Source of the DNA: Lingula anatina
Lineage: Eukaryota > Animalia > Brachiopoda
Length of the DNA stretch: 64,000 bases
NCBI GenBank assembly: GCA_051362555.1
Contig: CM120642.1
Coordinates: forward strand, 26,846,001 to 26,910,000
Reading direction: 5' to 3'
The notes beneath the pieces were generated by a model. The model saw nothing but the letters and a program-made list of their open reading frames with translations, was not told where the DNA came from and ran no database searches. The translations under genes were made by a program, and so were the position numbers. Shown here piece by piece: positions 3,201-27,251 of the stretch (its first letter is position 1; every line of letters starts with the position of its first letter).

Positions 3201-4182
3201 TTGAATAAAAAAGAAGAAAAATCAATAAAAAAGAGTATGCAAAGCGATAAACGTAATTTTACAATTGAAAACATCAAATTTCTTTTCAAAGGCTAATTTG
3301 CGAGTTTGTTATAAAATGTTTTAAAATGTGCGTTAGCAAAAAAAAAAAAAAAAATCAGCAATTTTTCTTAATCAAGTAGCTTTTGCCTATCCAAAACCGT
3401 TGACAAATTACGAATTTCATTTTATGTAGCTTTCCCATTTTTGTAATCACAAGTGAAATTCACCAATCTCTAACTGCATCACGAGTGTGTCTCAGAAACA
3501 AGAAACTCTGAACTCAAAACAGGTTTATGGATCATGCCTCTGTGAACAGTTTAATATGGTATGAAGTGATTAAGATTAAATTAACGTTCTAAAGGTCTAA
3601 CGAGCAGCGTGTGCCTTTTAGGCCTTATATCTAAAAAAAATATCTCATCTGTCTCATTTTTTCATTTCCTGTGCTCTTCAAAAATGTAAAGGAAAACTAA
3701 ATTGTATAATAAGTTGGTCCCCATGGTTGCTTTACTTACGTAGAATTACTCGATTAATTGCCATGTGTTTAACAAGGTCTCTGTTTATATTCAAAGCCAT
3801 TTCTTAACCGGGCATTTGTCTATAAAAAATTGAAATGCCTGCAAAATGAGATTTCACAATATTTTATCTCTATTAACAAAATCTTTGATATTATCAATAC
3901 TAGTATGTCTAATGTTAGAAAGGTAAAACTAAATTTTATCCCCTTTGGATCATATGTTTACCTGTATTGGGCACAGTTTCTGCTTTAATCTTTGCTTTCA
4001 AGCATTCTTTTCGAGCATTATTTTTGGTCAGATGCGACATGAATTAAATCATACACAGAAATACAAAGAGATGAGATTGCTTTTGAATGTAGCTTTTATT
4101 GTTTTTCATGTTGCTCTTCAATCTTGGAGGAAGGAAACGAAATGATAACAAGAAGCAACATCATCGTAAAATATTACAAATT

Positions 4183-7100
4183 ATGGCAGCTAAAAATGAT
4201 GATGATGTGAGTAAAATTACCTTTACGTGTCTTTTAAAAAATTGAGATGTTCAAGGATTTTTAAAGTTCAAATAAGACAAAATAAATATCAGGATTTAGA
4301 ATTTACTTACGTTTGATTCGTGATAGTGCTAGTTTTAATGTTACATACTGTAGGAAGCAAGCGTAGATAAGCAGCAACAAATGAAAATCACCACTACTAG
4401 CTTCTTTTACGACTCAAATAAAGTCTACATGGGATATACCAAATTAATCACTCGGTCAGACAAATAAAAGCTGTAGAATTGCACTTTATTCAAATTTCTG
4501 GTCGAAAATTTGACTTATTTATCAGCTAGCTATTCTTGTAAATTATAATTTATATGCTATTTGAAACTATATGGTGGCATTTGGTCAGGTTTAGTGGCAA
4601 TGCTTAGACAAATGTCAATTTTCTTCATATGCACCTTTAACACACTCTCTAGAGCAATACACTGGAAATAATAGCCCTAAGATGTGACTTGAAGACATCC
4701 TACTTTTTCATTTATATGTAATTAACTAATGACCCCCTGCTGTTGTAATTGTGCCTGTTTTAGCCCCTACAGCAAAACCATAAGGAGGACTAGCTTGATT
4801 TGCTCAATACTTGTGGTAAGTGTGGAACTTGAATATGCTTCACACTGAGGCAATCACAGGTGATGAAGTATACCCTCTGATATGGGGGGGGGGGGGGGGG
4901 GGCTTCTGAAATAGTACTGCCTCTTACCACCCCTTGAGCAGTGGCAGCAGCAGAGGAGGACAGTTGTGGGTTTGGGCGCAGTCACTCAGCTGAGCATCTG
5001 GAGTAAGTCTGAGGCTATGCTTGACTAGCACTACCTTATATAGGCAGGCCAGGCCCATAGCCAGAGGGGTTTAGGGGATTTGAAAGGACCACCCTTTTTT
5101 GTCATGAAAAGGTCCATTCTAGGTAAAATTTGATCTAGGTGCACAAAAGTGTAAAAGGTCCACTTTTTCAGAAAAAAAACCTTTTGAAATTGCTGGCTAC
5201 AGGCCTGACAGGGATGTGGGCTACTCGGCACCAATGTGTAAAACACCAAATACAAACTTAAGGGTGTGTCTGGCTTGGAAGTTGTTCTTGTTGATACCTG
5301 AAGTCCCACAGGGTGCGCTACAATAATTTGGTAACAGACTGCTGGCTTACCATGTGGTCAGAGAGTATCTGAGGTAGTCCATACCTGTACTAATGTCATA
5401 TATAAGAAGGAGTGACAATTATGATAATGACACACAGTGGTACAGAACACAACTCCTGAAAGAATATGGGGTTTAAGCATCAGATGTTATTTTTTCTCAA
5501 GAAAAGTAACCAATTTTCTTCTCCTCACAGATCATTGATGGATATCTCCTTGCACTTGGATGCAATGTTTTGTATCCTTTCTAATTCTATAATAAAATTC
5601 TTAACAAATCAAAATTTATTTATCACCATCTTGTACATGTACTGGGGTAAGCCTTGGTATGTTCTTTGTACAAGTTTTAAAACTTTTACAGTACATATCA
5701 ACATACATACATGTATACTATTACCGCATTATTTCAGGCTCAGGATATCCTTGGAGCCTGTCTAGGTATTTTGGTGGAGGAGGCAGACCCTGTCATTCTC
5801 AGGACTACTCTACAAACCTTGCTCAAGTTGATGAAGTAAGTTGGTGACGGGTGACAGATTTTGGTCTTGTTCTGTATTCCATGGTCTGTATGTGTTGTCA
5901 AGCAGTGATGCACTTTAAGTGGAATGATATTGTATTTATATAGCCCAGATTTGCTGTCTCTTTGTATAGGCACATACATGTATATCTGGTGTGTGTATGT
6001 GTGTGTGTATGTGTATGTGTGTGTGTGTGTGTGTGTATGTGTGTGTATGTGTGTGTGTGCGTGCATGTGTGTGCATAGCCCAGCTTTATTGACGACACAC
6101 AACCTTTTTCAAGATTGATGACTTTTGGGCTCACAAAATATACCTTATGACCTCAAACCAACTCCTCTCTTTTAAATTATTAGCAATCATTTTCAACATA
6201 ATATTGTTGCAAAAACACTTTTTGGGAGGAAAAGTGCCTAATTCATTTTGTGTGATTTTATTGATATACTACCATAATAATATTATAACTATATTTTTCA
6301 CAGAAATGCTGCTGAGAATCCGTCTGAGGAGAAGTTCCATCATGTACGGAAGGAAAATAAAGCATTCAGTAATAAAGTGTGGAGATATGCAGGTGCTCAG
6401 CAGTTTATGTTGGCGGCAGGATGGGCTGAGGTTCCTATATATTTATATCTTTGTTTAGTTATGATATTTATAGTAATGAGATTTTTCCAACAATCAGCAA
6501 ACTTCTGACTTTTTGGGAGCCAAAAATATCATTTTTGAGATCAATGCAAATAGCCCCCACATCATATTTTCAGGCTTTTTAACTAAATGGCAGTCTCATC
6601 CCTGTATTTAGTGTATGTGTAACTGTTAAAAATGCCATCTAATGTTGTCATTTAATGTATCACTTGTGTATTGTATTCTTCGATTTGATTCTGAAATCAA
6701 GATCACTATGGATTTGATCTGAATATGTTACTATTTGTCAGTAGATATTCTACTATTGAGAATCCTTTTAAACAAACTGGGTACATTTTCTTACTTGTTA
6801 TGTTCAAAGTAACACTTAAACAGTCTAATATACTGCATCGCTTTTGCACATTTATCATTATTATTAACCTGAAAATTAAATGTCATGGCCATGATTTGTA
6901 TGAGGTTGCTTTTTTTTTTCTTCAGGCAGATGATGCTGTAGTGTTGACAGATTCTGAGAGGTTAAAATGTGCCATTCAACTTCTTGAAGCAAAAATTCTG
7001 TAAGTTTGCATCTGCTTCCATATAAATGGTTTCAAACAACACTATTAGAATATACTAATAGTAATACTGTATATTTCTTAAACATATATGCCTTGAATAA

Positions 7101-7448
7101 ACATTTCCAGACAAGTATTACAACATTGTTTGCTTTGAAATGAAGTGCCCCCAGTAAAAAGATACTACATGAAGCATGTTTTCTTGCTACTTCATTAGAC
7201 AGTACACAGAGCAGTCGGCTGAACCCATTGAGAGTAAAAACAAACCATTGGCATCACCTATTCAGGCAAGCAAACCACAGTCTGGCTGGTCAGACAGAGA
7301 GGTAAACCTCCCTCATCACTCTCAAACCCCCCCTGGTCATAAATATTACATTGTATTTATCTTGTATGTTTGCCTTATTACATTTATCTGGTATGTTTAT
7401 CTTTGGAAGCCTGTCAGAAAAAATGTCTGGATCCGCCCCTGCTGATGC

Positions 7449-7497
<49 letters not shown>

Positions 7498-8800
7498 GGG
7501 GGGGGAAGTGAAGTGAAAAAAAATAGAAAATGGAAGTAATTGTGCAGACCCATAGGCAGGATGATGGTTGGGGTTTTGTATGAACCCCTTCTTTGCAAGG
7601 AAAAAGTCACCATGGGTAAAATTTGATCTAGGTACACAAAGGTTTCATGGTTAAAGTTTCAGAAAAGATCCCCCCTTTAAAATTTGTACCAAAAAAGTGT
7701 GTTTTCATATTCATAAAATTAAAATTTTTGTTGCTTAATCATCACAGCTTAGTGAAAAAGAAAAGCAAATTGCTGCTGAAAGAAAAAGACAACAGGCTCA
7801 GTTGAAAAGAGAAAAAGAAGAAAGGAAAAGAATTAGTGAACAGGTAGATATCATGATTTAAATATATTGGCATTCTAAGATAATTATTTAATATTTTTAT
7901 TTTCATTCTAGATTTTAGATTTTGTTGTGTTTATTAATAGATCCAAGAATGCTATTTCATTGGTTGCAATTCTACTAAAAAAAAGCTATTTATTAAAAAT
8001 AAAGGTATTTTTTTGTAATCTAAATTGTTATAATCAATAATTTTGATACTTGCAAATGCCAATTTTTAGTCATAGTGATTTCTTATCTGTTCCAGATTAA
8101 AGCTGATCGAAGGGAAGCTAATACAAGGGAAGTGAAAGAATCGGTGAGTTGTGGGCTAAGTTCAGATAAAATGTTTGATAGACTACAAAATAGCTTGGTT
8201 TGATTTAACTATAAATTTGAAATTATTGAGTCCTAGGTTAAGTCCACCTTAGAAGTCATTGGGTTCACTGAAGGAGAATACTGACTCCCAGCATGACTAA
8301 GTGTTTAATTACAATCAAACTTTTGACTTTCTAAAGAAAGTTTGAAAATGGCTCCAGTCAGAATGGTGCTGAACACAGTCTTTTTATTTTAAAAATAGCA
8401 TGCAAGACACTTTGATTCTGACGGTGGTATGAAGAGGTTTGATGACATAGGAATAAATCTGAATAAGGTAAAGTTTACTGAAAGGAAATTTTGTAAAAGA
8501 CCATTGACATACTGGTAGATATTTAAGACTTCATTTTCATTCAATTTGTGACAGCTTAATGTATGTATTTTCTATCAGCACACCCACATGATTTTTTAAA
8601 AATTTAAATCAGAAATTTGTTGTAAGGCCACATTCCCATTTCATTCTACTTTTTTTCTAGCAATCCTAAATCATATCTGAGCACACTGCTGATAATAATG
8701 GCCATATCTAACCAAAGGAGGCCAGTCACATAAATGTCAGCTTTTTAAAAAATATTTTTGATTCATTTTATTTTTTATTTAGGGAGGAGGATGAGGATAG
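4183..8800 (+). CDS. PUB-domain and coiled-coil protein with C-terminal GGG-U-G (putative selenoprotein), ~218 aa; exons 4183-4206, 5738-5835, 6304-6430, 6926-6999, 7199-7301, 7748-7843, 8096-8143, 8399-8467, 8783-8800
   Basis: All introns are GT-AG and phase-consistent. Spliced translation: MAAKNDDD-AQDILGACLGILVEEADPVILRTTLQTLLKLMK-NAAENPSEEKFHHVRKENKAFSNKVWRYAGAQQFMLAAGWAE-ADDAVVLTDSERLKCAIQLLEAKIL-QYTEQSAEPIESKNKPLASPIQASKPQSGWSDRE-LSEKEKQIAAERKRQQAQLKREKEERKRISEQ-IKADRREANTREVKES-HARHFDSDGGMKRFDDIGINLNK-GGG(TGA)G*. The segment TLLKLxxNxxxNPxEEKFxxVRxxNxAFxxKVxxxxGAxxFMxAxGW matches the PUB-domain consensus. The first exon is the least certain. Confidence 0.85.
5050..5207. mobile_element. 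Short non-autonomous TIR element (CAGGCCC(A/G)TAGCCAG termini); related copies at ~7545-7680 (+) and ~20945-21076 (-)
   Basis: Left end CAGGCCCATAGCCAG and right end CTGGCTACAGGCCTG are imperfect inverted repeats. The internal segment GGTAAAATTTGATCTAGGTGCACAAA...TTTCAGAAAA recurs at the other two loci. Confidence 0.6.
5988..6074. repeat. (TG)n microsatellite; others at 170-230 (TTA/TTG)n, 7449-7505, 11412-11473, 13848-13923, 14043-14085, 31897-31978, 35807-35940, 49694-49728, 50917-50948, 59192-59279, 63842-63886
   Basis: Directly visible simple repeats. Confidence 0.95.
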
Positions 8801-9426
8801 AATACCTCTTAACATCCAGACCAGATGTTAATCAGGGCTTATGAGAGGATTTTTGCACAAAAAAAATACAGATAATGAAGAAATTGGTAAAATGTTCAGT
8901 CAAGACCATGGGAGAACCTGATGGAAAATTTTTTTTTAATTTTGTAAATTGCCAAAGAAGGGAAGACTGTTGTGTTTTTTATTTGTTGTTTATTTTTTTA
9001 TCGAAGAAATAACTTTTTTTAATTGATGAAAATGATCTCCTATGAAAAACTTTAATATTGTACAGTGTTGATTAACTTTGTTTTAATTGTATACCACACA
9101 TTTCTTCAGACCTGATAGAAATTGGAATATTCACCCTTATGGCTGTGAACTTTTATAAAATTGAGTGTGAGTGACTCTTTACTAGGAATATAGTCACTCG
9201 CTGGTATTTAGTGCTATTAATTCCATCATTTCTATTATTGTAGTTTTTTAAAACAAAAAAAAATGCTATTAAATCCCCATTGCCCTGAGAGACTGGTCAG
9301 AGGTTTTAGAGGTTTTAGCCTAGAATTTAAACTGGCAAGTTTGACAGGGAGAAACTTGAATGTTACACCGGCTTGACTATTATCTATAAGATACGGAAAA
9401 GAATTGTGATTGCTTATTTTGAGTGA

Positions 9427-9497
9427 TGTCAAACTTTTGATGAAGGTAACTGTTTAAATCCTCAAAGGCAGAGCAGAAACCGGAAAGCCAGATTTAA
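9427..9497 (+). promoter_or_regulatory. Type-II eukaryotic SECIS element in the 3'UTR of the PUB-domain gene
   Basis: ATGAA at 9440-9444. Helix-2 strand GGTAACTGTTT (9445-9455) pairs with GAGCAGAAACC (9471-9481) at 9 of 11 positions, including 2 G-U. Apical AAA at 9456-9458, mini-helix CCT/AGG (9460-62/9466-68), 3' GGAA at 9482-9485 supplying the GA of the non-Watson-Crick quartet. Helix 1 is weak. Confidence 0.8.
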
Positions 9498-9498
9498 T

Positions 9499-9504
9499 AA
9501 TAAA
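9499..9504 (+). promoter_or_regulatory. Polyadenylation signal AATAAA immediately after the SECIS
   Basis: AATAAA lies ~14 nt downstream of the SECIS core; position is consistent with the 3' end of the PUB-gene transcript. Confidence 0.5.
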
Positions 9505-9595
9505 GGCGATTTTATATGTGATAAAAATGTAAGAATATGTGACAAAACTGTACTCTTCAAACATGTAAAAAGCAGTTGGTTTCCATTTGGACTTA

Positions 9596-9830
9596 GACTC
9601 CGTTCACATGGAAAGTCTATTTTCTAAAAAATCTATTTTCTATTCGCGGTATCTTGTAATCACGGTCCCTGTGCCCTGAATATCCCGAGAATTAATTACA
9701 GCTTTGGAAGTAACTGGCTCGCGCCGCCAGTATTTACGCCGCGGGTTATTCAGGGCACAGACCGTGATCATAAGATACCGCGAATAGAAAATTGATTTTT
9801 AGAAAATAGACTTTCCATGTGAACGAAGCC
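9596..9830. mobile_element. PIF/Harbinger-type MITE (near-perfect hairpin)
   Basis: ~90-bp inverted arms (CGTTCACATGGAAAGTCTATTTTCTAAAAA...TTTTAGAAAATAGACTTTCCATGTGAACG), flanked by TTA at 9593-95 and 9831-33. Confidence 0.8.
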
Positions 9831-11206
9831 TTAGTCCTATGGATCTAAGAAGACACCCCCCCCACCCCCACCCCCAACATATCATCTGATTAATTCTAGT
9901 AGTTTTCTGTAGAATCTTACCTCAGTAAGGGTTTTTTAAAAATAGGTATTAGGTTATTTATACTACCGTTACCACAATTTGGCTGACGTCCTTTTTATGG
10001 TTAAGTCGGTTTTATATTTTGTTGTACGTCAAAGGGACATTTGTCTTTTGGTTGAAACTGAGAAGTGCTTATTTAAATGTCAATTTTTATGTATCTGCCT
10101 TTAAATTGGTGTGATATTTGTACAGAGATCAAATGGGTATGGCCGATTTTGGTTTGTTGGTATTTTTGTGAAAAAATAAGAGGTCATTTGTATTCACAAG
10201 GAATTTGAGTTCTTATGTATTCAAAATATTTTATTGACTTTTTTTGCATCAAGACAGAAAATGGTGCGTGTATAGAGATCTTGGGATGTTGTATATAAAA
10301 TAATTGAATAAAATACAAAAAGGGACATCATTATTGAAAATTAATGAAGAAAAATGTATCCCCTTTTTGTTATATTGTACACAATGTGTATGTTGCTTTT
10401 ATTCTAGTTCGCGGACCCTACTCTCAAAACTTCGTAACTTATAACAATTTGAAAGTATTTCCGTGAAAAGTTATAAAAAATACGAAAGTTACATGTACAA
10501 CCATTCGAGAATACGGCCCAAGGACAAGAACATACTGAAATCGTTAATAGTATGGATGACGCCAGCAGACAAACAGGTTATCCATTCAAAGGGCTGATAT
10601 ATCAGCCGAGATTGGGGTTTCTATGTTATGTGGCTGTCTGGTGAAGTCACTAAGATTAGTGACATTTCTGGTTCAGAACGCAGCCCTGGGAATGAGATTC
10701 CAAGAATTCTACTACAATCATCTTCTTAGAAGCTTATTCATACCGATAGTTCTCGGTATTTTGTAGGTTTTTTAAACTTTAAATTTAAGTCAGTTTTGTC
10801 TGAAGCAACCAACGAAGAGCACGTGCTTGGTGTAATGTTGTCAGTTGCAAGCATTTCTCGTCTTGCAGGACGTCTGGAGAAAATTCTGTGAAAGACGGCA
10901 ATGGCGCAGCAACCTCCCACATCGCACTTTTTAAGTAGAAAGTGTACAAATGTGACGGCGCATGTCGAGTTTAACGCCCAACGTGCCATGTACAGTGTCA
11001 AACGTAGTACTACTGCCCAGTGTTATCACAGCACGAAAGGTTGAGACCGACTTTCGGTCTACTGTTCATGAAATGTATACCCCCCCCCCCCCCCCCACCC
11101 ACCCACCAAAAAAAAATAATAATAAAAATAAAATAAGGCTCTTCACATGTCCTTGGCCGCCATTTCATTTCTGGTATAATCTCATTGTGTCCTCAGACCG
11201 GAGATT

Positions 11207-11474: not shown

Positions 11475-13847
11475 CTATTTGTAAAAAAAATTAGAAGCGA
11501 ATACACGCTGTAGAATTTTATAGCACTTACCTCATCTCTTATTCCCTTTACTTTCCTTTGTTTATTCTTATTTCGAGTGTTTAATTTAAAGCCGTAGTGA
11601 TATGTAATAGCAGCAAGGATGCCCCCAAAGATCGGGCCTACCCAGTATACCTACAATTAATACCGATAAAATTAAAACAATACATATATGTAATTCTCAG
11701 TTACGATTAATACAAAAATAGTAATGTAATTTACACACTGTATCATCGTTCTTTATTCGAATTTATGAATCCTGAAGGAAATTGTCCTTAAATTCGCCAA
11801 TCGTGATGTCGACAAAATCTTTATATGGGCTTCATTTTGATGTTGTTGATTGAATATACATTGGCATGTTTCAAGTGCTATTCCAGTGGTTTTTAGGTGA
11901 ATGGTCGTACACTGACAATTTTTTAGCATATGTCTGTATATAAGAATCGCCTGACAGATATACTGTTACACCGTTACACAATGGAAGAAAATAGTAACAA
12001 ATTCCCTGACTATAGACTAGCACAGATAGGTCACACATACATAGCCACTAGCTCCACGTCTTGTTTGAGCAGTTCCAGATTGTTCTTCGCATACTTTTAA
12101 TTCCGGTCAATTGAGGAAGATTAGTTTGTGAATAATGAAATAAAGCTTGGAATTAATTGGGGAAACGGTACAGACGAATGGTAATCGGGAAAAGTCTCGA
12201 TAGACAGTAGCTAGCGGATGATGCAGGCGTATTAAGTTCACAGCGGACGACAGGACTAACAGATTCGCGGATTAAATAAGGACGACTCTCTTGAAAGCTT
12301 ACTGCGTAATTCTATTCGGTGTCTGTTAGGGGATTATTCAGCGCGCTTTCAAGTGGGTCGGCCATATTTGATACGCGGATCTGTTAGTCCGCGGACCAAC
12401 ATGTTCTGAATGCATCCTTACCCTACCCTCCGTTCACAACGGTCTCTGTAGTCTGTTACAAAAGTTAAAAAATTATTCGATTTTGTACCTACAGGGACAC
12501 CTGTGGCCGGAGGGGAAGTCTTACCCAATGGTTTTCCCATATATTGACATAAACAGCAGGCCCCAGGGAGCGGGCGGGGTTCATACTAGCACCAGTGTGA
12601 TTTATCTGGAAATAGTACAAAAATGAACCTGTTAAAAAGATTGTGATCTACTCACCTTGTCTCCCGACAGCTGCCTCGAAAGTCACGACCTTTCTAAAGT
12701 TATCACGGACAGATCTGTGGAAGTGAAGTCATGTGAAAAGATGAATCATGTGGACAATGTTACGGGACGTGAACAAGTGCATGGTAGTGCATTCAGGCGA
12801 GACTGAGAGAAGAAATGCTCACCCTAAGGATATTTTATATTTTATTTCTGTTTTAATTATTGAAAATCATATATATAATTAAAGAATTTAGTCTTGGGTG
12901 GCGAGGGATTTAAGGATTGACAAGTCGATTGAGTGAGTTACACGCACGGTTGAATAAAAGTTGACGAAGAAGAAAAATATAGGTTAGGGAAAAGGCAACG
13001 CAAATTTTTTTTATAAACAGAAACTGGGATCTTGCTATTTTGCTGCATAGAGGGTAAAGAGCATTCCAGAAAAGAAGTCGTCAAAGTCCTTGGAATGTCA
13101 AATGTCTTATGGCAACAGTCCTGGAAACTGTGGTTTTGGATATATCATATTATCCCAACCATCTTTCCAATACAAGATTATTCAGTGCCTATAACCTATA
13201 ACCCGCTGTATGGAGAGAGAGAGAGAGAGACTACGATCCTCTTCACAAAAGAAAAAACGAGGGGCTTACTCCAGTACAGATATTCATCGCCACAGCAAGT
13301 CCAATGACCAAACTCGGCATCGTGATCTTCTTCGCGCTGTCCGTGGCGCCAAAGATGACGAAGACGAGCATGAAGCTCAGGTACATCTCTACCACCATAC
13401 CCTGGGCGGGAGACATCAGGGGATTAACGACGGTCGTGGCAAAAGTCCCAGTTGCGTTGGCAGGAGTGACACTGTTCAAAATTTAAAGATTTGAAAGATT
13501 CCGGATTATCATTTAATTCATAAATTATTATTGATTTCTTAGTTTATCAATTTACTTTAAATTGTGTATGTTATTTTTAAGAGGAAGCGAAGAAGTAGAG
13601 TGGTAACACCAATTTAAGTCCCTTTTCATTCTCCCTTCTTCTGATCTTATATTCGTTTTAATTTTCTTAAAGCGTTAAGGGAAATTACATGAATTTGCAC
13701 TACTACTCTTAAATCGCCTGTGCACGCCTATTCAGGCCTGACTATCTGTATTCTAAATAATTCATAAGTAATTTTATCTTACACGTAAACCAGACCTGAG
13801 CCAAGTAGTGATCCCATGCATTGTGCCAGAATGAAAAGAATAGCTGA

Positions 13848-13879
<32 letters not shown>

Positions 13880-14040
13880 ATACATACATACATACATACA
13901 TACATACATACATACATACATACAATTTTCGTCTAATCCTACTCAATATTGAATTTTGTTGGATTTTCGTTTCTCTTTTCATGAACTTATTTGACCACAG
14001 ACTACCCCAGTATCACCAAAATGTAATTACATGCTTTTAT

Positions 14041-14087
<47 letters not shown>

Positions 14088-14553
14088 GCACAGTCGTCGG
14101 TCAGTGGTTTGTTTAATAAATGTTTATATGTTGAATGCAAAAAAATATGAAACTAAGTACAAAAGAAAATCGGGCTATACCTTTCAGTATGGAAAGTTTC
14201 CGTGCCACAAACATGGCCAGCGTCACTGTAGGATTTACTTGGGCCCCCGAAAAATGTCCGAAGCCCTCTATGAGACACATCACTACAAAACCCATTCCCA
14301 AAGCGATCTGAACCGTGGTGCCCGAGTCGTTATTTCCCGGCCATTTTAAAGGCACAGAACACTGGACTATCATCAGTATCGCAGTTGCTGTGATCTCTGA
14401 TATAACGGCTTTCCAGAATTTGGCCGTCTTCGCCTCCTGGAGACCGACCCAAACTTTCCAAGAAGGGGTTCCCATCTTCTCCGACTTTAAAGAGTTCACT
14501 GGATTGCAGCTCTCTCCCGGAAGTAATTTATAAACGTATGGCGACCTGGACAT
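11207..14553 (-). CDS. Aquaporin (MIP family, classical AQP1/4-like grade), paralog A; exons 14553-14181, 13843-13783, 13471-13270, 12605-12525, 11650-11531, 11284-11207
   Basis: Motifs [27 protein letters not shown] and [13 protein letters not shown]; phase-consistent GT-AG introns; ends ...SNEKTN*. Confidence 0.92.
12253..12390. mobile_element. Degenerate hairpin/MITE in aquaporin A intron 4
   Basis: GGACTAACAGATTCGCG...CTTGAAAGC is inverted as GCTTTCAAG...CGCGGATCTGTTAGTCC. Confidence 0.55.
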
Positions 14554-17500
14554 CTCAAACCCACTCGGCTCGGTTACTGATTATAAGTCTAAAGTTATCT
14601 GGCAGGCTATTGTAAGGACACACGCCAAATTAGATTACTCACTATGCGCGTGACTTAAAGAAAATGAGAAATGCCTATAACGCGCTCATGTAACTTTCAC
14701 CTGGACGATGAACTCGTGAGTTTTTTGTTATAACTGAGTTGCTCCTTTTTCTGTTGTTTTTTCAGACTTAAGCGACTGTAGGGGGAATCTTAGCCAGGTT
14801 TAACCGAAGGCCGCGGCTGCGGTATCTGTCGCAATGTGTCTCATCGTATACGATATGGTCGTTAACCTAGCCTTATGTACAGGAATACGCATATCATAAA
14901 TCTGCCATACTATCACCCATCCAGTTAGTTAATTGAAGGGCGCGACTCGACTAGAATCTGGTAGATCCCAGAGATCGATCTTAACGACACCGTACCGCAC
15001 TGATACAACAATATGAGGCGGTTCATATCCCTATGCGACAAGTAAGCCTACTTTGTGACGGGTACAGTGTAGCCATCAACATAGCATAGAAGGCTTAGGA
15101 ACTTTCTTCTCTGTGACCATGGGTGCGCTGGTAGTCTGTTACAAAATGATTGTATCGTCGATGCTCTATTATAGAGACCCTTGCTATCAGAAAGAAGGAT
15201 CTGCGTCTTTAGATCGATCCATGTTAGCCTAATGTGAACGCGTTCTAAGAACGTTACGCTCTGACGCAGCAGTCACGGCTGACATCATTTATGACATCGT
15301 TGATCAGCGGTTTGATTGTCGCACGCACGTGATCACGGACGCGAAGAGGTTGAACTGTTTCGAAAAATAAACAGTAGTAGTTGTAAGCCCAATTTATTCG
15401 AAGAATGATACTAAGCCAGCTGATGTCACATAAACAAACAATTAATCTGATATAGCAGTACAATTGTTGCACTTATTTGCTATGATAACAAATGGTGATA
15501 GTAATTATCAATGCATCAATATAACAGGGGCTTACGCGCATAGACATTTTCGGCAAATCAGATGACGAATTAGACGAATGAGAGAGAGAGAGAGAGAGAG
15601 AGAGAATTTGCTCACGAAGGTGTTTTTTCTCTTTTATTTACTCGTACATACAAACGACTAGAAAAAGCTTTTTTAAAGCAAAAAAAAAAAAAGGAAAAGA
15701 AAAAAAAGAAAGAAAGAAAAACGCTTTCGGTGAAATTACAGGTTTTGATAAGTGACATAACATGAATATTTGGAATATCAGTTCTGGTTCAGTGATAAGC
15801 GTATTAATAACAGGAAATAAATTGTAGACCTACCATCGGCCCTATTGCTACATGATGAAAATGTTGTTTAGATAAAGATATTTAACCTTTTTATTGAAAA
15901 GTATACAATAACAAATAGGTATCGAGATAATGGTATGAAAGTTTTTATGCACTGTTAAGCTTGTGTTGTGACTTTTAAAAAAAGGGAGCACTTGTGATAG
16001 AAAACCTTTCCTTAGGGATGGAGGGGGGAGGGTCCAGTTTTTATTCCGCTTTACGTTGACGAAACAATAGATAATGTGGCATGAACAAAACAGAATGTGC
16101 ACCGAAAGGTACATATATCAGTTCATCTCTTCATCGAGATAACATTTGTCGTCTGCTATCTATCATGTGACAAAGTCACCCCCCCCCCCCCAACACGTGT
16201 CCTTGACCTACGTTAGCGATCACTGACCTGAATAATGGATATCACACCATCATGGGGAGGAAATGGACACTTCTATTTGGCCCTTGGCGGATATTTTCAA
16301 GAGCATGATTTACACTCTTTTGTCCATTGAATACGATTTTGCACACCTTCCAAGAGGTTAATTTGGATTACACGGAGAATTTGTTTATTAAAAAAACTTA
16401 CATGTATATTTGTGTCTCTATTGATTTCAATTATACAAATTAGTGTGTTTATTTATTCAATTAAAGCTCAGAATATTGAACGAAATTGGTCTACGTTCAT
16501 CTTACGTACATACATATCTTGAAAAAGTATATCTATGAAACACGGATTTTTCCGTTTTGCAGATTAAATACATGGGAACAATTGATGGGAAGGCTACGAA
16601 AACATCGGGCTCATCATCTACAAATATTGTATAGAACACATAAATTTATCATTGTTTCTAAAATTAGTTTGAAGGTGCTAATTTCCTTGGAGGTATTTCA
16701 ACTGTCATATGCATGCTCTCGCGTACATCAATTGAATTGAAAACTTCGCATGGAAGTGTCTGTATCCAGTCGCAACAAACACAATGGACACATTTACATG
16801 TACTTTGCGGACTTGGTAGTGGTGCTTTATGGATTATTTTATAATCATAAATAAAGAATATATTACCTCACGTTTGTTTTTACTATAATAGCGAGTGATA
16901 GTGCATATTTTATGATGGTACAAATGGTCCTACACCAAAACATTATACTTTATTTCCGCGACAAATCTTTCAAGTGTATAATCTCTTTAAAAATGGCAAA
17001 ATCCCTCCCTTGTGTATTTCAACGCATTCTGTTATATCCAAAAGCACGGGAAATGCTCTTACAGTGTAGTGCCTACCCGTCAGTCATCATCAACTTCAGC
17101 TTTGCAGTCCACGTGTAAAAACAAAGAAAGAAAAGGAGAGGGTAACGGAAAGAGGCAAACAATTACTCCACGTTGACATGGTGTACAACGAACTTTGATA
17201 TTCTGGATCATTGGAACAAGAAAAATATTTAGCATTCATGTTTTTACCAGTGATATGGATAGAGCAGAAACAACCCCCCCCCCTGCCCCCAATACGTTCG
17301 TTTGATATGCTATATCAAAATACGCGACCCGAAGTTATTTAAAAGAACTAGAACATACAATGGCAACCTTTTGTTCAACAAGTTTGTCCAGACGTCTTTG
17401 TTCGTCAGTTTTTGCAAAGCGAAGTCGTGTTGCAGCACTTACAGGGACGAAGACACGGAAAACCGGGCATAATTGTATAAGCAGCCACGCTCAAATCATT

Positions 17501-19269
17501 TGGTAAGTCTTTCTGTTGCTACAATCAAATTGCATTTTGAAAGCGATTGTCAAGCAGAGGATGCGTCGGTTATCGAGACTCTCGCTAAATGACTGCTACA
17601 ATAGTGTACATGGGAAGTGTATGGGACCGAAATGGATTGTTTAACTTTAATCCATCATTAATTTTTAGTCAAAATATGGCCGTCGTATTAAGATAATCGA
17701 TGTCGCCCCGTCGTGAACCTTATATTCCGCAGTTATGGGGATTTGCCATTCACTGTTTTGGTAGTTAAGTGACTAGGGAACTGATATTTTACTTGATGGT
17801 TGACCATTCACAGTCACGTATGCCTATGTAATGTTTCCTCGTAATTTCTACTTGAGTCTTGAGTCTTTAGATAAATAAGTAAGCTCTCATTTGCCATTTT
17901 TTCAATAAACTTACGAGATACCGTGTACATGTTCATTCACCACCTACCGCCTCACCCTTGATACAATACAATGTAGCCGCTCTTTTCTGAGAAATGTTCA
18001 ATAATCTACATGCTCTTACTTTTTATCAGAATGGCAAGTTTAGTCATCAAACCAGAGGATATCTTGTGTCGGGTAACCCTGTAAAATATATAGACCATTG
18101 TGATTTTCGACTCAAAACTAGTCTCCTCTGTGTTTATAGAGGATAAACAAGCACCCTAACAACAAAAGCTAAAGTGGCACTGTATATAAGTCCATACAGT
18201 TCGGTATTACCCTTCTGTACTCAAACATAGGCATACAAAGAAGCGTCAACTACTGAACTCATACAGGTAAAAAAAGAGGGCGTAAAAATAAGTTTGTAGC
18301 GCGTTAATAGTAAACGACATTTGCGAACAACTGGGGACCTTTTTTAAAAAAAATCCTAACAAATAAATCCACTTTTCTGATAACTTGGACATTTGGAGAA
18401 AATAGATATTGGAAAATCATATCAAGATGAATATTAGTGATTTTCTGAATTTGGAGATCAAGATCCAAGCTCAGATTTAGACGTACAAATATTGTGATCT
18501 TCTGTTTTCATCTTAACCGAGACTACATGTTGATGTAAAAATAGGGGTATATAAATTTGGTACGCAACAGTAACCACGTTGAGGCTTTCGATCTAAATAT
18601 TGAGGTCGCCCCTGGTAGAATTCACAATAATAATCAGGCGGCGCACGCATGTTTCCGGAATGCTCGGCCGTAAGTACATTTCATACGGAAGTTGTACAGG
18701 TATGTAACAGGTGGGTTATATAGCACAGGTGTATACAGTTAGATATCATAGCTAGCTTCCCATGTAACTTTCATACGATCAGCATATTAAAAGGTTATTA
18801 TACATAAAAGGTAAACCAATGACATATGTAAGTTTTAATGGTGCCATGAAATATAAAGTTTTAAGGACATAACGTTGATGAGTTCCAGGGTCTGATAAAA
18901 ATACACGGATATGAAACACCCAACCACATAGACCCGGCTATTAATAAAGGGCTTTGTAGACGTAGAACTATATTGTTAAGTGTCACACAAAATGATTGCA
19001 GTGATGAATCTGTAAGTTTTGTAATCAATTTTCAGTTTTCTTTTTTTCAGTTTTTTAAAGATATTCAGTCATGACTGACATACTTTTTTTACATAATCCG
19101 TAGCGTGCGACTCGTTCGAGAATAATCCAGGTCACATTCTTGTACTTAATGTTCGCTGTTTTAGAACTGATATTTATATACCTCAGCGGAGCAAGGGATG
19201 ACTCGTGCAACGTAAGAAGTCCCGCAAATCCACTTTATATATGTCTGCTGTTTTTGTCATCTAGGTAAA

Positions 19270-21898
19270 ATGGCGAGCGACGTTCAAAAGTTTGTCGGAA
19301 CTGACGAAGTGAAAACGGTGAAGTTTTGGAAATCGGTGACGGCGGAGGTGCTTTCTACGGCGATAATGATGATAGTCCAGTGTTCTGTGCCTTTGAAATG
19401 GCCGGGAAATAACGACTCGGGGACCACGGTTCAGATTGCTTTGGGGATGGGGTTCGTCGTGATGTGTATGATAGAGGCTTTTGGTCATATTTCCGGGGCG
19501 CAGATGAATCCATCAGTATCGATAGCGATGTTGATTGCTCGGAAAATTTCATTATTGAAAGGTAGGTACGGTTGTAGTCTAAGCAAGATGTATGATACGG
19601 CTCCTTGGTCTACGTAAAAGCCATTGTAAAGTTATAAAACACAACAATAAAAATGGGTATATTTCTTATTCCATTTACGGCCATTCATAGAAATTTAAAC
19701 TAATGATATAAAACACTGTCGGTCGAGCGATATATGCCTGAAAAACCTATGTGTCAGCGAGAGAGGCATACATTGTTTGTCGCGAGAGGGTGACAGTGTA
19801 TTATTTGACATACATACTGGGATAAAATACTCGCATTGCACAGAAAAACATCCCTGCAACTAAATAAAGCGTGTATTGCCACGATCACATTACATCTCTT
19901 TTTATGTATAGACACAAGGGATGGAGATTCGTCGAAGTGTACGTATAAAGTCATATTGGAGTATTACATGTATATGCCATACTGTATTATGTCAATTCTC
20001 AAAAGGTAATATTTTTCTTCTATATTTCACAACCCTACGCTTGATCCAGATGTCGGGCTATTGATTTTCATTTTTTCAAAGAATCTTATTTTTGTCTACT
20101 CCTTCTTACCTTCTTATTCTTAATTTTCTTTTTTTTTTCTCTGCTGTTTTTAAGAGGTCTGCTTTCTCTTTTCAGCAATATTTTACATCATTGCACAGTG
20201 TTCAGGGGCCTTCCTCGGGTCTGGACTTATCTATATGTAAGTAAAATTCTTATCAAAAAAACGAGGAGGATACGGAAAGTATTATTCATATTAAACAATA
20301 CACATTACTTTGCTGTGGACAGTAGTTACTTCATGTACTATAGATTCTTGAACCCTTTCTATACATACCGCATATATGTCAAATGTTTTGACATATAAAC
20401 TTATCAAAAATATCGGCAAAGAATGGTAAATATATAATATTATGGTATTTATCCATATGTGAAATGCCGCTTAGAGGTGTCTAGAATAATTTTCATTTTA
20501 ATATATATACACTGACCATCGTGATCACATAAATATAAAATTCCATTATCAGTGTCAAACGGTCAAGAAATTTCATGGCACGTATTGGTCGTAAATTCGT
20601 GATATTATAAACGATGCTTTTATTTCTCTCTTTTAAATTTCTCTTTCTTAACTTTCATTTTTCAGTATAACGCCAGCTAACGCCACGGGCGGTTTAGCCA
20701 CAACTACCGTTAACCGCGATATGACCCCAGCACAGGGGATGGTGGTGGAAATGTACCTGACCTTCATGCTCGTCTTCGTCATTTTTGGGGCCACGGACAG
20801 CAGAAAACAGATCACGATGCCCAGTCTGGTCATAGGCATGGCAGTGGCCATGAATATTTGTACTGGGGTAAGTATCTTGTTAAGTCTTCAGAACATATTT
20901 TATGGATTTTATTCTTTAAATAATTTTATTATTATTATTTTTAAAAAAGGGGGGTCTTTTTCTGAAAAAGTGGACCTTTCGCCATGAAACCTTCGTGCAC
21001 CTAGGTGAAAATTTACGCAGAGGGGACCTTTTCTTTCGAATCCCCCGACCCCCCTTCCCCTTGGCAACGGGCCTGATTATTATTATATTTAAATGTAAAC
21101 GACGAATAACAAAACATTCACGAAGACTTATAAATTCAATTCATTTTCTATTTATTTCAGATCAACCACACTGGAGCCAGTATGAACCCAGCCCGGTCAC
21201 TGGGTCCTGCTGTCTACGTTAACATATGGACTGACCACTGGGTGAGTGTTTCTATACATACCGCACATTTTATTTATTCAATTATTTTTTATTCATTGAT
21301 TCATTCATTCATTCATTCATTTATTTATTTATTTTATTTTGTTATTCATTGATCTATCTATGTATCTATCTATCTTTCCATCCATCTATCCATCCATCTG
21401 TGTTTCATTTATTCAATTATTTCTCTGAAATTATGAAATTTTATTTCATATACTGTATATATTTTCTACAGGTGTATTGGGCTGGGCCTATCTCAGGTGC
21501 CATCCTGGCTACACTGGCTTATAACTTCGGCTTCGTCCTACACTGCACCAAGAAGGAAAAGGAACTTGAAGAAGAAAAGAAATATGCAGGTAATTTTTTT
21601 TTCTCTAAATTATCCGAAAGAATTAATTTTTCATTCCTTTAAATTGAGAAAAAAAGATAAAGATTTGGGTCCAAATGGCACCCAAAATGCCAGAAAAACT
21701 GGTTTTAATATTTTTAAATTAAAATTTTGAATTAAAATTCATTTTCTTTCAGAAACTTTACCTGACCCAACAGTTATAGAAAGGGTTTGCGGAAGGTACT
21801 GCGGCACACTGAACAGCGGGCTGATGCCAGCACGAGTTACAAGCGAATCCACGTTTACACTGGAAACATCGGAAAGCACAGTGCATTTTCAATTGTGA
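19270..21898 (+). CDS. Aquaporin paralog B; exons 19270-19561, 20176-20236, 20666-20867, 21161-21241, 21472-21589, 21753-21898
   Basis: Motifs [27 protein letters not shown] and [12 protein letters not shown]; same core intron positions as paralogs A and C; ends ...STVHFQL*. Confidence 0.93.
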
Positions 21899-22690
21899 TA
21901 GATGCGATTTCCCAGAGGAGGCGAGACGCATTCTTTGGTTAAACAATTGGATAGCTAAATTATCTTCTACAGCTGTAATTCCACCCAATCAGGAGTAAAA
22001 TTTTAAGCATTATTTCTCATAATGAGAAAGATTTAATAGAAATTTATAGCGATGTTTGTATTGTTAGGATTTTAATTATTGAATTTGTTTTTCAAATACT
22101 CTCATTGTTGGCAAGCATAAATGATGTCATAAGACCACACCATAGGAAACTTGGATTATCTGTACTTCAGAATATCAAATATTCACTTATATTTCTGTTA
22201 CCAAAAGTGCAGTTATGAAATCCTTAATATGAAGCGCTCAAGGCGATATCATCTACAAAGGGAACAAAAGGGAGGCTTTCATCAATGACTTTTATCTTCT
22301 GTTTTACCCCCCTCCCCCTTCTTCGTGTGCTGCATCGTTTGGGATTATTCCATTAGTGTTCTCCATTCCCTTCTTTTAAACCCACACATATTTTCACTTT
22401 TTACAAGCATGTACTGGAATTATTAAAAGCATCTCAGGTAAAAAATAGTAAGAATAAAAAGCGATCCGTTTTTTGGATACGAAAAAAAAGGATGCACATT
22501 AAAAACTGATAAAATTAGCTAATTTTTTACTGTTCTTTTTTCTTAACTTTGATAAAATTATTGTATTCATACATATAAGAATAAAGCAGTAATTTTTCTT
22601 CAACAATAGCTGGTGCTGAATTATTTGTTCACTTCTGTCTGACTAGAATGAGGCAATCTAGTGGAAAAGTTTCAATCCAGGAGTAAAATA

Positions 22691-23003
22691 TGGACCATTC
22701 AGAATGAGAAGAGCCGAGTGCTAGCTGGTTCACGGCCTAAATATGGCGGACCTAAATGAAAGGAAGACCGCTTAATCCTGTAATGGTCTCTCCGCCTCTT
22801 TCACGCCTCCCCACGCGTCGTCCCTGCAGGGGCACAGTAATTAAATCTCGTCTCAATTCGACCGGTCGAGGGACAACGCGTGGGGAGGCATGTGAGGGGC
22901 GGAGAGACCATTACATGATTAAGCGGTCTCCCTTTCATGTAGGTCCGTCATATTGAGGCTGTGGACCAGCTAGTACTAAGCTCTTCTCATTCTGAATGGT
23001 CCC
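22691..23003. mobile_element. Long palindromic MITE upstream of aquaporin C
   Basis: ~135-bp inverted arms (GGACCATTCAGAATGAGAAGAGC...GCTCTTCTCATTCTGAATGGTCC); ATA on both flanks as a possible 3-bp TSD. Confidence 0.8.
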
Positions 23004-23321
23004 ATACTTGCCCTCCCACACTAAGTGCCCTCCCACACTTGCCCTCCCATTCCAAGTTGTGACGAACTTCTTTTCTGATCAACATTCATATCATCAACAC
23101 TGTAAACACGATTCTGTGGTTAAATACCCCGTTCAGTTTCTCAACATAAGCATCAGCGTATACTGTAGATAGGGGCGTTATCTGAGAGCCAGTGCCTATT
23201 GTTTCAATTTAATCCGGGCATGACCACTTCAGCCAATGAACTCGCAAACTGGACAGGTCATTTTGACCGGCACGGATCGCTTTTAGTATCGAAATCGAAG
23301 TTAAGCGATAAAGATCGAACA

Positions 23322-26300
23322 ATGGCTGATCATTCCTTTCAAATCGGTCACCACGAAATTAAGACCGTGGCATTCTGGAAGGCGGTTTCTGCGGAGATTT
23401 TGGCCACTGCAATACTTATGATAGTCCAGTGTTCCACGCCTTTGAAATGGCCGGGAAATAACGACTCTGGTACTACGGTTCAGATTGCTTTGGGAATGGG
23501 TTTTGTCGTTATGTGCTTGGCAGAATCCGTTGGACATATTTCCGGGGCCCAGATGAATCCGGCGGTGGCTATAGCCATGTTTTTAGCTCAGAAAATATCA
23601 CTTTTGAGAGGTAAGTTATGCACCCATTACATATGTTCCTGCTCTCATTCTGTTTATTATTATTTATTTCTTTTCTTTTACTCGCAAGTCATTAATACAC
23701 TTATGCGAAAGTCACAATCTCTGTCGTACTGACATTTCATGCTGTCGAATATTTTACAAAATGTATCGCAAATCATAAGGTTTATGCTTTGAATTAAGAT
23801 ATGAAATCATACAACATTATATAACTTTTACATGAGAAGACACGTTCTAGTACAGTCTGTATGGAGTCATCAGCTACAGCTCAACCTGAAGAGAGTGAAA
23901 TTATTTCCATTTTTATGTTTTCCATTTATTTAACCTTTACTTCCATGTGGTCTGTTACGTGCGTTGTATGCTCTCACAATATTCTACATCCAGTGTCAGA
24001 ACACATTGCTAATTAATAATAAGTTTATTGAGCACTAAATGATATGAATACATTTGCAAGTTTCACTAGACTACATTATTTACACAATATATAAGGATAT
24101 ACATTTATATATGTTTACATATGTAGTATGCTAAATTACACATGCGTTAATGCATGTTATGCTATAAGATTAATTAATTAATTAAGCTATTCACAGCATT
24201 ATCAACAGTTAGTGGCTGTGATAATTAGAACTGGGCTTCTGCAAACGAAAGAAAAATTAAGTTAAAGAGTATAGAGTATTCCAATGCACAGTGGTAAACA
24301 TAAAAAACGCATTATTCAACCAGTTCACACTTAAGATATGAATTAAAAGAATGTATGAAGCCACCATTCTAATTTGCTGGGCAAAATTCAATTAGCAATT
24401 GAAAAACATTTATGTACATTTAAATTTTAGCCCCACGTTCTTTTCATGAAGTACGTCACAGAGAGTAGAGCCGCACCTGCCTAATGTGCAATCAATTTTA
24501 AGTATAATTTGTCCCACTTCTACTAACTGAGGATTGTCTTTGCTAAAATGAGGCATTGCAATGGTTAAGCGAGAACTGTCGCACCAGAATAGAAAAAATA
24601 TTGTGTACGGTTTCAGAGCATTCTATACTTTTAACAACGGTGTACACTTTTTTTCGTGGACATGTCAATAGAGAGTCAATGCGTTGATAGTAAGTACTAA
24701 CACTTAAGGAAAAAATGCTGCCTTATTTAAATATTTGAAAGCAAAAATGTTGCATTGATCTTGTTCATGCACAAAATATATGGGTATACACATATTGGAA
24801 AATATTTCCTAGAATGAAAAAAATGAAGACTCTAAATTCGAAGATAACTAACCGAGTCATCAATTTTTAATCTTAATCCTGTGAATCTTTTTCCACTTAA
24901 TTTCATTGCCCGCTCTTTTCGCCTTGTTTTCATTTGGATATACAGGGATGCAGGTACACTAACAACCTCCCATTACATTGGCCTGTCAAAAAATAGCAAT
25001 ACATAAATAAACCAATAAATAAAATAAATGAATAAATAAATAATAACAGGAAGCGTTACGAGTATGTACATGTATAAATGCCTCTACTCTTAGTTGGACA
25101 TTGGTTCTGTTCGTTCAACAGATTTGATTAAACGTACTCCAGGTAAATGTACTCTCTATCTCTCTCTCTCTCTCTCTCTCTCAGGTGTTAACCAACTCAT
25201 ATGTAGTGATTTTTCATTCCATTTCAGCAATATTATACGTAATAGCTCAATGCATAGGTGCAATTGCCGGATCCGGACTAGTCTACGTGTAAGTTTTACA
25301 ATCACTTTACAAGTAAATTGGTCAGTAAATATTACGAAGGGAAGGAGTTGAATTTTATATCAAAATACTGAAATTATTTTGCTGATGCAAATCGCTAGTT
25401 TTTCCGTTACTTCCGACCCCACTTCCTTCCAAACCACACGAAATCTCGCTTGATTTCTCGCTACGGCTCGAGACTGCGGGTTATATTGGATGATTCCCAT
25501 TCACTGATAAGGTTGAGCTCTTGTTACCCACTGCAACAGTGGTTTTAGAAGTCACTTTAACCTATTGCTACGGAACTGATTTAAACACCCAATGAACTAT
25601 GGTCAAAACGACGACAGAGTGAGGGAGGCAGCCGTTTTTATTTTATTGCGTATTTTTTGTGTTTTCATTAATTCATTCATTCATTTTGTGGATTGTATTA
25701 CATCATAATTTTCATCTAAAGTATAACAAGCTTGCATGACTTTCACATCCGAGTATTGTTGTACGGGTACACGTTATCGACACTATGTAGTAAATTATCA
25801 TATCACCACTGATAATAGTAACTGACCACCATTACAGCATCGATATAGGAACCTTCAATAAGGTGTTTGACCATAATCTGTGCTTAAGCTTAAAATACCC
25901 CAGCAGAATAAAACGTTTTAGCGTGTATTCAAAAGATTTCAGAAAAACACACTAGTGTAAAAAAATAGTTTATTATTCTAAATTTGCCGTGATAATTTAG
26001 TTTTGTTTTCTTAATATGATGAATGATACTTATTTTCAATTTATGATTGGATTTTCACAACGCGTGTACATCTCTAAGAATCACATTTTCTATAAACTTA
26101 GTGTAACCTCACCAAATGCGACGGGGAAATTCGCCACGACTACCGTGAACCCGTTAATCTCCCCCGCGCAAGGGATGGTCGTAGAGATGTACTTGACCTT
26201 CATCCTCGTCTTCGTCATCTTTGGCGCCACGGACAGTGCCCGGAAGTTGACCATGCCCGGGATTGCCATTGGACTGACCGTTGCCATGGACGTGCTGAGC

Positions 26301-27207
26301 GGGGTATGTTAAGATATATTTCTTAATTTGTATACAAACGTTCTATATCTAAACGTAAATTTGCTGTAAACCTGGGTGAGTTTTTGTATAGAAATTAGAA
26401 GAGACGCATAGTTTAGCTTCTTATGTCTACCTACCAATCCTCCTAGCTTGTCCTTTTTCATTATTTGATAAAGCTTTTATTCTCCGGACTTATGGCTTAA
26501 TAAGTTAAAACTTTTCCATTAAAAGTGCAAAAATTAATATTAGTGTAATTTATTTCAGATCAACCACACTGGAGCCAGTATGAATCCAGCCCGGTCACTG
26601 GGTCCCGCTGTCTACGTTAACATATGGACTGACCACTGGGTACTTACCACCAATTATATAGAAAAATTATATAAATCTATATTTTATAAGCATAGGTTTC
26701 TGGTATTTAAAGTGTTATGTTTTGGCACATTATAAATCGTAGTCTTCCTTTTACGTTACTGAAATCTTTTTATCGGATTGCTTCCGTATTGTGTTCTGTT
26801 GCTTCCATCGCGTGTATAATTGCTTCCGTCACGTGTAAAGATACAGCTTAAGTCACTATTTATCATTGTTACAACTTCAAATTTTTATCATATAACGTTT
26901 GCTTCATACACCGTAATGTTCGTTACGTGGAAATTGCTTTTGGCACGTGTAAAATTGCTTTCTACATGTATGCGTGTAAAATTGCTTTCGTTGCATATAA
27001 GGATGCTGGTAAAGTGATACGGATTGTTCATAATTGTTACAACTTGGAGTTGTTATTACAAAATATTTGCTTTACACGTAATATATCTGTTCTAGGTTTA
27101 CTGGGTCGGCCCTATCCTTGGCGGCGCACTTGCCACTTTGGTATACCGGTATGGGTTTAACCCTGTCAAACAAGGAGATGAAAACTGTAAAACGGGTAAG
27201 CATTCGT

Positions 27208-27251
<44 letters not shown>

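Follow-up and report, generated by a model that had tools for sequence, protein, structure and literature searches.

A PUB-domain gene of Lingula anatina whose conserved in-frame UGA very probably encodes a penultimate selenocysteine

Background

SELENOS, a p97-linked protein with a long cytosolic helix, and SELENOK, a small single-pass membrane protein, both carry selenocysteine (Sec) in a glycine-rich motif at their C-terminus. Here we describe a gene of the brachiopod Lingula anatina with a similar end. It lies in a stretch of 64,000 nucleotides of AT-rich eukaryotic DNA (assembly GCA_051362555.1, contig CM120642.1, positions 26,846,001 to 26,910,000), called the window below. Its last coding exon, GGA GGA GGA TGA GGA TAG (8783-8800, + strand), contains an in-frame TGA, and positions 8786-8797 within it (GG-TGA-G) correspond to the C-terminal Gly-Gly-Sec-Gly of SELENOS.

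The Gly-Gly end of truncated SELENOS and SELENOK is a degron read by KLHDC1/2 (PMC7090344; articles given by PMC number are cited throughout for the accessible part of their text). SELENOS, a membrane protein of the endoplasmic reticulum, binds the N-domain of p97 through a VCP-interacting motif, VIM (PMC5468458). The window protein, in contrast, has no transmembrane segment, no VIM and no match to the SELENOS Pfam family, and its PUB domain would attach at the other end of p97. It likewise differs from SELENOK in lacking a transmembrane segment and a SELENOK Pfam match.

PUB domains bind the C-terminal PUB-interacting motif (PIM) of p97 (PMC5468458, PMC6995525). The window protein shares the PUB fold and most pocket residues with PNGase/NGLY1 and UBXN6/UBXD1 (PDB IDs: 2hpl, 2ccq, 6sap and 8fcl). 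It differs from them in having no transglutaminase, PAW or UBX domain, in the replacement of the first pocket tyrosine and in the added Sec tail. One PUB-named selenoprotein family has already been listed: "PUB: PUB domain-containing protein" is among the 42 algal selenoprotein families of Jiang 2020 (PMC7539508).

We propose, as a reasonably likely explanation overall, that the gene encodes a soluble selenoprotein of 218 residues that docks on p97/Cdc48 and carries a redox arm.

Results and discussion

A spliced and expressed gene with one in-frame UGA

RNA-seq reads from four runs with the same species label (Lingula anatina) were mapped to window positions 3800-10500. The gene is real, spliced and expressed: its nine exons are connected by eight splice joints, all with read support. 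Seven GT..AG joints (5835/6304, 6430/6926, 6999/7199, 7301/7748, 7843/8096, 8143/8399 and 8467/8783) occur in all four runs, the last of them with 112, 63, 13 and 41 reads, which confirms the entry of the spliced frame into the tiny last exon proposed in the initial annotation. Exon 1 is joined to 5738 in three of the four runs (7, 11 and 10 reads), with length-preserving letter differences. Exon reads of the three stranded runs come almost entirely from a + strand transcript. The spliced frame comprises 218 codons and a stop; the TGA (8792-8794) at codon 217 is its sole internal stop, and the TAG (8798-8800) is codon 219. At least 14 coding variants were listed, of which nine are silent and five are replacements confined to the linker and the helix, three of these in the exon 5 linker. 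None of the variants listed, in either set of four runs, falls at the TGA.

The closest database records, RefSeq XP_013390254.1 and XP_013419099.1, both from Lingula anatina, lack the tail. The former (126 amino acids) runs out of frame past the PUB domain; the latter (179 amino acids) continues into intron 6.

Conservation of the UGA codon

Searches yielded 151 proteins, and among the matches listed 92, many of them near-duplicates, carry the tail motif F-x-x-I/V/M-G-I/V/M-D/N-L/V-N/D. Ninety of the 92 stop three to five residues past the motif, where the window has its TGA, and annotation thus ends there as had been foreseen. In the remaining two the sequence changes to unrelated residues close to where the window gene has its last intron, probably because these models read through an intron. 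A U at the TGA position occurs in none of the 92 database proteins.

At the DNA level, JGI contigs were scanned with a pattern that ends at Gly-Gly and is blind to the following codon. Such a pattern would miss diverged tails, for example in P0049/P0055 and in Haliotis and Gigantopelta (P0053, P0019). It matched 28 loci, 14 belonging to the family and 14 unrelated, with membership of L001, L010, L014, L016 and L028 taken from partial matches; a PUB domain was found in all nine scanned open reading frames (ORFs) of the 14 family loci. The codon after Gly-Gly is TGA in 14/14 family loci versus 0/14 unrelated ones. The next codon encodes Gly in ten loci (GGC 4, GGA 3, GGT 3), Ser in one and Arg in one, and is a stop in two (L004 and L014, with a stop directly after the TGA). 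A second stop stands one codon on in 12 of the 14 (TAA 7, TAG 5), where base composition predicts about 0.03 per codon. The conserved TGA-Gly-stop arrangement anticipated for orthologs was therefore recovered. Sec recoding predicts just this combination, in which the TGA is invariant, the Gly codon varies synonymously and the second stop changes freely; an ordinary stop would hardly produce it. We conclude that the window UGA is very probably recoded to Sec through a Sec insertion sequence (SECIS) in the 3' untranslated region (UTR).

Several observations weigh against this conclusion. The 14 loci represent 13 distinct tails, and only 12 are informative, since the L001 and L028 tails are identical and L014 uses genetic code 6, with TGA as sole stop. 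Cys at the TGA position was found in 0/92 tail-bearing proteins, so that the Sec/Cys exchange expected in homologs did not materialize. Sec incorporation is here read from sequence.

Were the TGA a true stop, with the conserved Gly-Gly(-Gly) end serving as a degron or a conjugation end and the downstream hairpin arising by chance, one would understand why all database models end at this codon, why no Cys homologs occur, and why the window SECIS is missed by Rfam and by our covariance model R1 (see below). An ordinary stop should, however, swap with other stop codons, yet TGA stands in 12/12 informative loci, and the second stop does swap freely (TAA in seven, TAG in five). Nor would it account for an intervening Gly kept through three synonymous codons, or for SECIS-shaped elements in five to seven homologs, two of them with weak Rfam SECIS_1 matches. 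We consider a true stop very improbable.

Selenium-free decoding, in which near-cognate tRNAs (Trp, Cys, Arg) read through the UGA and thereby mask the Gly-Gly degron, would likewise conserve both the TGA and the codon after it. UGA-C is a leaky stop context, yet the base after the TGA is G in 10/14 loci. Readthrough also leaves the SECIS-shaped elements unexplained and fits poorly with L004 and L014, whose next codon is a stop. It appears slightly less probable still than a true stop.

The SECIS candidate and the 3' UTR

A candidate type II SECIS element lies at 9440-9485 (+ strand), 645 nt past the TGA, and was characterized by pattern scan, shuffles and read coverage. It follows the pattern AUGA-N12-AA-N25-GA with a UGAA/GGAA core and folds into a 9-pair helix II with a 2x2 loop, an apical AAA and a 3-pair mini-helix (-7.6 kcal/mol), consistent with the UGAN/KGAW core and apical adenines described for SECIS elements (PMC3753652). 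It is the single pattern match in the 1.53 kb UTR; among 1000 dinucleotide shuffles, 67 gave any match and seven one as good as 9440-9485. The SECIS-shaped stem-loop postulated at this distance is thus present and transcribed. Two differences listed for X8 and X9, which are divergent runs, lie at or beside the element (9469, 9486), in unpaired positions, and are too few to weigh.

The same element, transcribed and canonical as it is, forms the weakest link of the argument. Rfam reported nothing at E<=1 on 8000-10500. The plain minimum free energy fold of 9405-9500 does not exceed shuffles (z -0.10), and helix I is absent in the constrained fold. A lenient scan gave eight matches in 128 kb of both strands, one other being equally stable. 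Covariance model R1, built from two coral-like SECIS elements, matched just its two source sequences and missed those of the window and of other loci; it is therefore too narrow and lends no support. Finally, no SECIS was found in 7/14 loci: L001, L007 and L015, which have less than 90 nt of 3' sequence, and L004, L011, L016 and L017, without a match by either of the two rule sets described next, although L017 appears plausible by eye.

Under strict rules (RUGA, N10-13, AA, N14-30, GA, paired helix II) one element each was found in L002, L010, L018, L023 and L025 (5/14), with 0-17% of shuffles matching, and none on the reverse strands of the loci. Relaxed rules, whose chance rates are higher, add L014, with a GGA core and 11 perfect pairs, and L028, which lacks the AA apex. 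Rfam SECIS_1 scored 26.7 bits in L002 and 23.3 bits in L010, both below the gathering score of 35. MAFFT alignments of the elements placed the cores out of register and were not used.

Two of these elements and one further match deserve separate mention. The one in L014 (1591-1630, + strand), SECIS-shaped with the non-canonical GGA core, lies 48 nt after GG-TGA-TGA on a contig of 20% GC; Sec would be the final residue there. In L025 (1428-1464, - strand) a GUGA-type SECIS-shaped element stands 32 nt past the TGA, an unusually short spacing. A weak SECIS-shaped match on the - strand of the window at 52652-52697, given by the strict scan and by model R1 (E 0.022), probably arose by chance.

The long form of the 3' UTR extends over 8801-10330 (+ strand), with poly(A)-type hexamers at 9268, 9499 and 10307 and stranded read depth reaching the 10286-10346 bin. 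In four other runs, UTR reads cover the SECIS candidate and continue to about 10330, past the signal at 10307. The initial annotation was right that the UTR passes the SECIS and that an AATAAA follows at 9499, which is, however, not the sole end. In run X3, depth is about 41 at 9432-9553 but 11-20 beyond 9859, a drop that is confounded by an intervening repeat and suggests that some transcripts may end near 9499. At 9589-9837, shortly after the SECIS, the UTR holds an element resembling a miniature inverted-repeat transposable element, whose inverted arms (42 nt, 93%) are nested. It is likely polymorphic, since reads from X8 and X9 jump over it (9596/9871).

Protein architecture

The protein consists of a PUB domain, a linker and a long charged helix, followed by the GGG-TGA-G-TAG end. 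Coding exon 1 (4183-4206, + strand as all exons) supplies the ATG and codons 1-8; reads join it to 5738, proteins P0001 and P0054 share this N-terminus, and no further Met occurs within 60 nt of frame upstream. Exon 2 (5738-5835, joint 5835/6304) encodes PUB helices one and two, which the model of P0010, a chiton homolog, shows as H9-30 and H33-52. The PUB core with the PIM-pocket residues N42, K51, F52, R56 and N59 comes from exon 3 (6304-6430), placed by Pfam PF09409 and by alignment with PNGase PUB, and the domain ends in exon 4 (6926-6999, bounded by joints 6430/6926 and 6999/7199). Exon 5 (7199-7301), delimited by its splice joints and holding three of the five listed replacements, encodes the variable linker. 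The charged long helix of exon 6 (7748-7843, defined by its joints) corresponds to helix H130-181 of the P0010 model, and exon 7 (8096-8143, joints and homolog alignment) holds the helix end with a conserved Asp-Arg. Exon 8 (8399-8467, joints and homolog alignments) carries the tail motif F-x-D-I/V-G-V/I-D/N-L/V-N. The last exon follows through joint 8467/8783.

With exon 3 by itself, Pfam PUB (PF09409) is matched at E 2.8e-11, which passes the curated cutoff, and the structural matches given below are all to PUB domains, so that the PUB assignment of the initial annotation stands. So does its view that there is no clear transmembrane segment: the maximum 19-residue hydropathy, 1.41, falls inside the first PUB helix. 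The protein is thus very probably soluble, with a PUB fold and without a membrane anchor. Codons 143-190 specify 56% charged residues, and the only Cys are at positions 16 and 98.

AlphaFold models of P0010, computed from alignments of 12 and of 46 sequences, contain a confident PUB domain (predicted local distance difference test, pLDDT, >90), which a disordered linker connects to a helix some 50 residues long; the tail after it is of low confidence. Neither a folded tail nor intramolecular docking was predicted with either alignment (tail pLDDT about 46-51). Foldseek with the homolog model returned eight matches at E<=0.001, all UBXD1 or PNGase PUB structures, including p97 complexes (two of UBXD1, one of PNGase). 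Against 2hpl, the homolog model reached a TM-score by target of up to 0.80, with a root-mean-square deviation of 2.2 A. A tail profile found nothing in the PDB at E<=10 and nothing consistent in Pfam. Neither a UBX nor a transglutaminase catalytic domain was found with Pfam, which recovered PUB alone, accompanied by thioredoxin or EF-hand in some protists. The SELENOS and SELENOK Pfam families were absent from 12 full proteins and 10 tails.

The F-x-x-x-G-x-x-L spacing of the tail motif (8399-8467) is that of an SHP box, with Asp in place of the first Gly. Gly-rich SHP-like stretches also occur at the N-terminus of L002 and in the linker of L004. Another possible exon, 5531-5571 with GTATCCTT as donor, was discarded: its read depth is about zero and exon 1 joins 5738 directly. 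The surrounding exon-like stretch, 5531-5580, ends at GTATCCTT, which we take to resemble a U12-type donor; its use is without read support.

Predicted docking on p97

Compared with the PNGase PUB domain, the window protein keeps N41, K50, R55 and N58, but Y51 is replaced by Phe and Y38 by Leu. The pocket motif YxxN(x)9Y accordingly reads Leu-xx-Asn-(x)9-Phe (Leu39), and the K/RxxN motif for the terminal carboxylate of p97 is present as R56-x-x-N59. In the family, the pocket was readable in 81 of the 92 proteins, with the register set by regular expression. K50 is kept in 74/81, Tyr or Phe at position 51 in 81/81, Arg or Lys at 55 in 74/81 and N58 in 66/81. By analogy with PNGase and UBXN6, the PUB domain is likely to bind the p97 PIM.

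Three points count against such binding. Leu or Ile takes the place of the first pocket Tyr in 64/81 proteins, Tyr being found in nine and Phe or Trp in eight. The YxxN(x)9Y motif has been called essential, and the PUB domain of SPATA2, lacking the first Tyr, is not known to bind a PIM (PMC6995525). The VIM pattern RX5AAX2R occurs in none of the 92 proteins, nor in the window protein. It is the replaced tyrosine together with the SPATA2 precedent that keeps our confidence in p97 binding at this level.

The same replacement and precedent, along with the absence of a VIM and a UBX domain, would suit a true selenoprotein whose PUB domain recruits a partner other than p97, as the SPATA2 PUB domain does with CYLD (PMC6995525), and which works outside p97 pathways. 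The retention of the other pocket positions, and of Tyr, Phe or Trp at the first position in the minority just given, argues for p97 instead, as do the top matches by structure and by sequence, which are to PUB domains that bind p97. A partner other than p97 seems to us rather unlikely.

A proposed mechanism

If p97 is the partner, docking is predicted between the PUB domain and the p97/Cdc48 C-terminal tail, at the exit face, and the long helix may act as a spacer that holds the flexible Gly-Gly-Gly-Sec-Gly tail as a redox arm. The selenol could then reduce or resolve disulfides on unfolded substrates leaving p97, and the Sec tail could be recharged by the thioredoxin system. Recharging is suggested by protist thioredoxin-PUB-tail fusions, its sole evidence, and no Cys able to resolve Sec lies near it, a point against the scheme. 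Action on disulfides of p97 substrates with thioredoxin recharging is accordingly put forward as a tentative idea.

Failed Sec insertion would leave a product ending in Gly-Gly, which may serve as a degron of the KLHDC1/2 type, by analogy with truncated SELENOS and SELENOK; selenium supply would then set the protein level. We give this degron switch an even chance.

If true, the proposal places a selenol at the substrate-exit face of an unfoldase. Provided that p97 binding holds, the protein would be a third p97-tied selenoprotein, soluble and acting at the exit end, and a small tractable system for the role of C-terminal Sec in p97-dependent protein quality control.

Range of the family

The family occurs in brachiopod, mollusc, annelid, coral and protist records. 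Named members come from Lingula, Liolophura, Solemya, Potamilus, Patella, Haliotis, Gigantopelta, Owenia, Paralvinella, Acropora, Pocillopora, Stylophora, Orbicella and Porites, and from the dinoflagellate Biecheleria, which has the EF-hand form. Pfam PUB was found in 12/12 full homologs scanned. Protist fusions of two kinds, thioredoxin (CGPC)-PUB-tail and EF-hand-PUB-tail, are represented by L004 (218-1249, - strand), P0110, L007, L011 and L015; those with thioredoxin are L004/P0078 and P0110. The tail and the PUB domain travel together: of 45 tail-profile matches, all carry PUB except one short protein. No vertebrate or arthropod member occurs among the matches listed, which is not evidence of absence.

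In a tree of PUB domains only (59 rows), deep relations are unresolved, so that monophyly of the family is not demonstrated. Ten other rows fall together with the window sequence at weak support (94/73), and eight of the ten are named records from molluscs or annelids. Clusters of PUB proteins of about 185 amino acids in the ESM Atlas, with Basidiomycota as commonest named phylum (score 0.94 by features), could be non-Sec relatives.

Relation to described selenoprotein families

The family is broad in eukaryotes, apparently unreported in animals and perhaps once named in algae. The algal PUB family of Jiang 2020 likewise contains Sec, is eukaryotic and bears the PUB name, and the family described here has protist members; the two are compared by name only. 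According to the accessible text of PMC7539508, the algal family is neither among the three novel families nor among the 19 shared with animals, and is one of the least widely distributed. That both are one family is, in our judgement, fairly likely. The initial annotation did not recognise the architecture among described families. This is doubtful, since a PUB-named family already stands in the algal list, if outside those shared with animals; the protein is neither SELENOS nor SELENOK.

A 21-family table for six invertebrates contains no PUB family (Jiang 2012, accessible part of PMC3473315), and the accessible parts of PMC12822975, PMC13134290, PMC7435645 and PMC3828610 make no mention of a PUB-type one. 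"PUB", "PUG" and "UBX" are absent from two supplements of the Seblastian paper. In the literature covered, beyond whose scope lie most subscription papers including Gobler 2011/2013, Jiang 2020 alone links PUB to a selenoprotein family.

We regard as doubtful the more far-reaching alternative of an ancient, apparently Sec-only and undescribed family distinct from algal PUB, with a range that takes in corals and spiralians as well as dinoflagellates, ciliates and other protists. No soluble selenoprotein would have been described before as a cofactor at the C-terminus of p97; the GG-U-G end would have converged with SELENOS and would double as a degron switch that senses selenium.

The family could be missed because its last exon is just 18 nt long in the window, its Sec is penultimate and Cys homologs are lacking; Seblastian requires Cys homologs for new-family calls (PMC3753652). 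The public gene models examined are cut at the UGA or mis-spliced, and the RefSeq names "PNGase-like" and "UBX domain-containing protein 6-like" on its proteins derive from the PUB match only. The metazoan selenoproteome has been treated as a nearly closed list, to which the family would be added in brachiopods, molluscs, annelids and corals.

Other features of the window

Labels drawn from ORF translations point to several aquaporin-like genes on both strands at about 13000-27400 and to a multi-exon SLC4/anion-exchanger-like gene on the - strand at about 30000-50500. A fragment at 54006-54374 (+ strand) presumably belongs to a Tc1/mariner-like transposase, judging by its translation.

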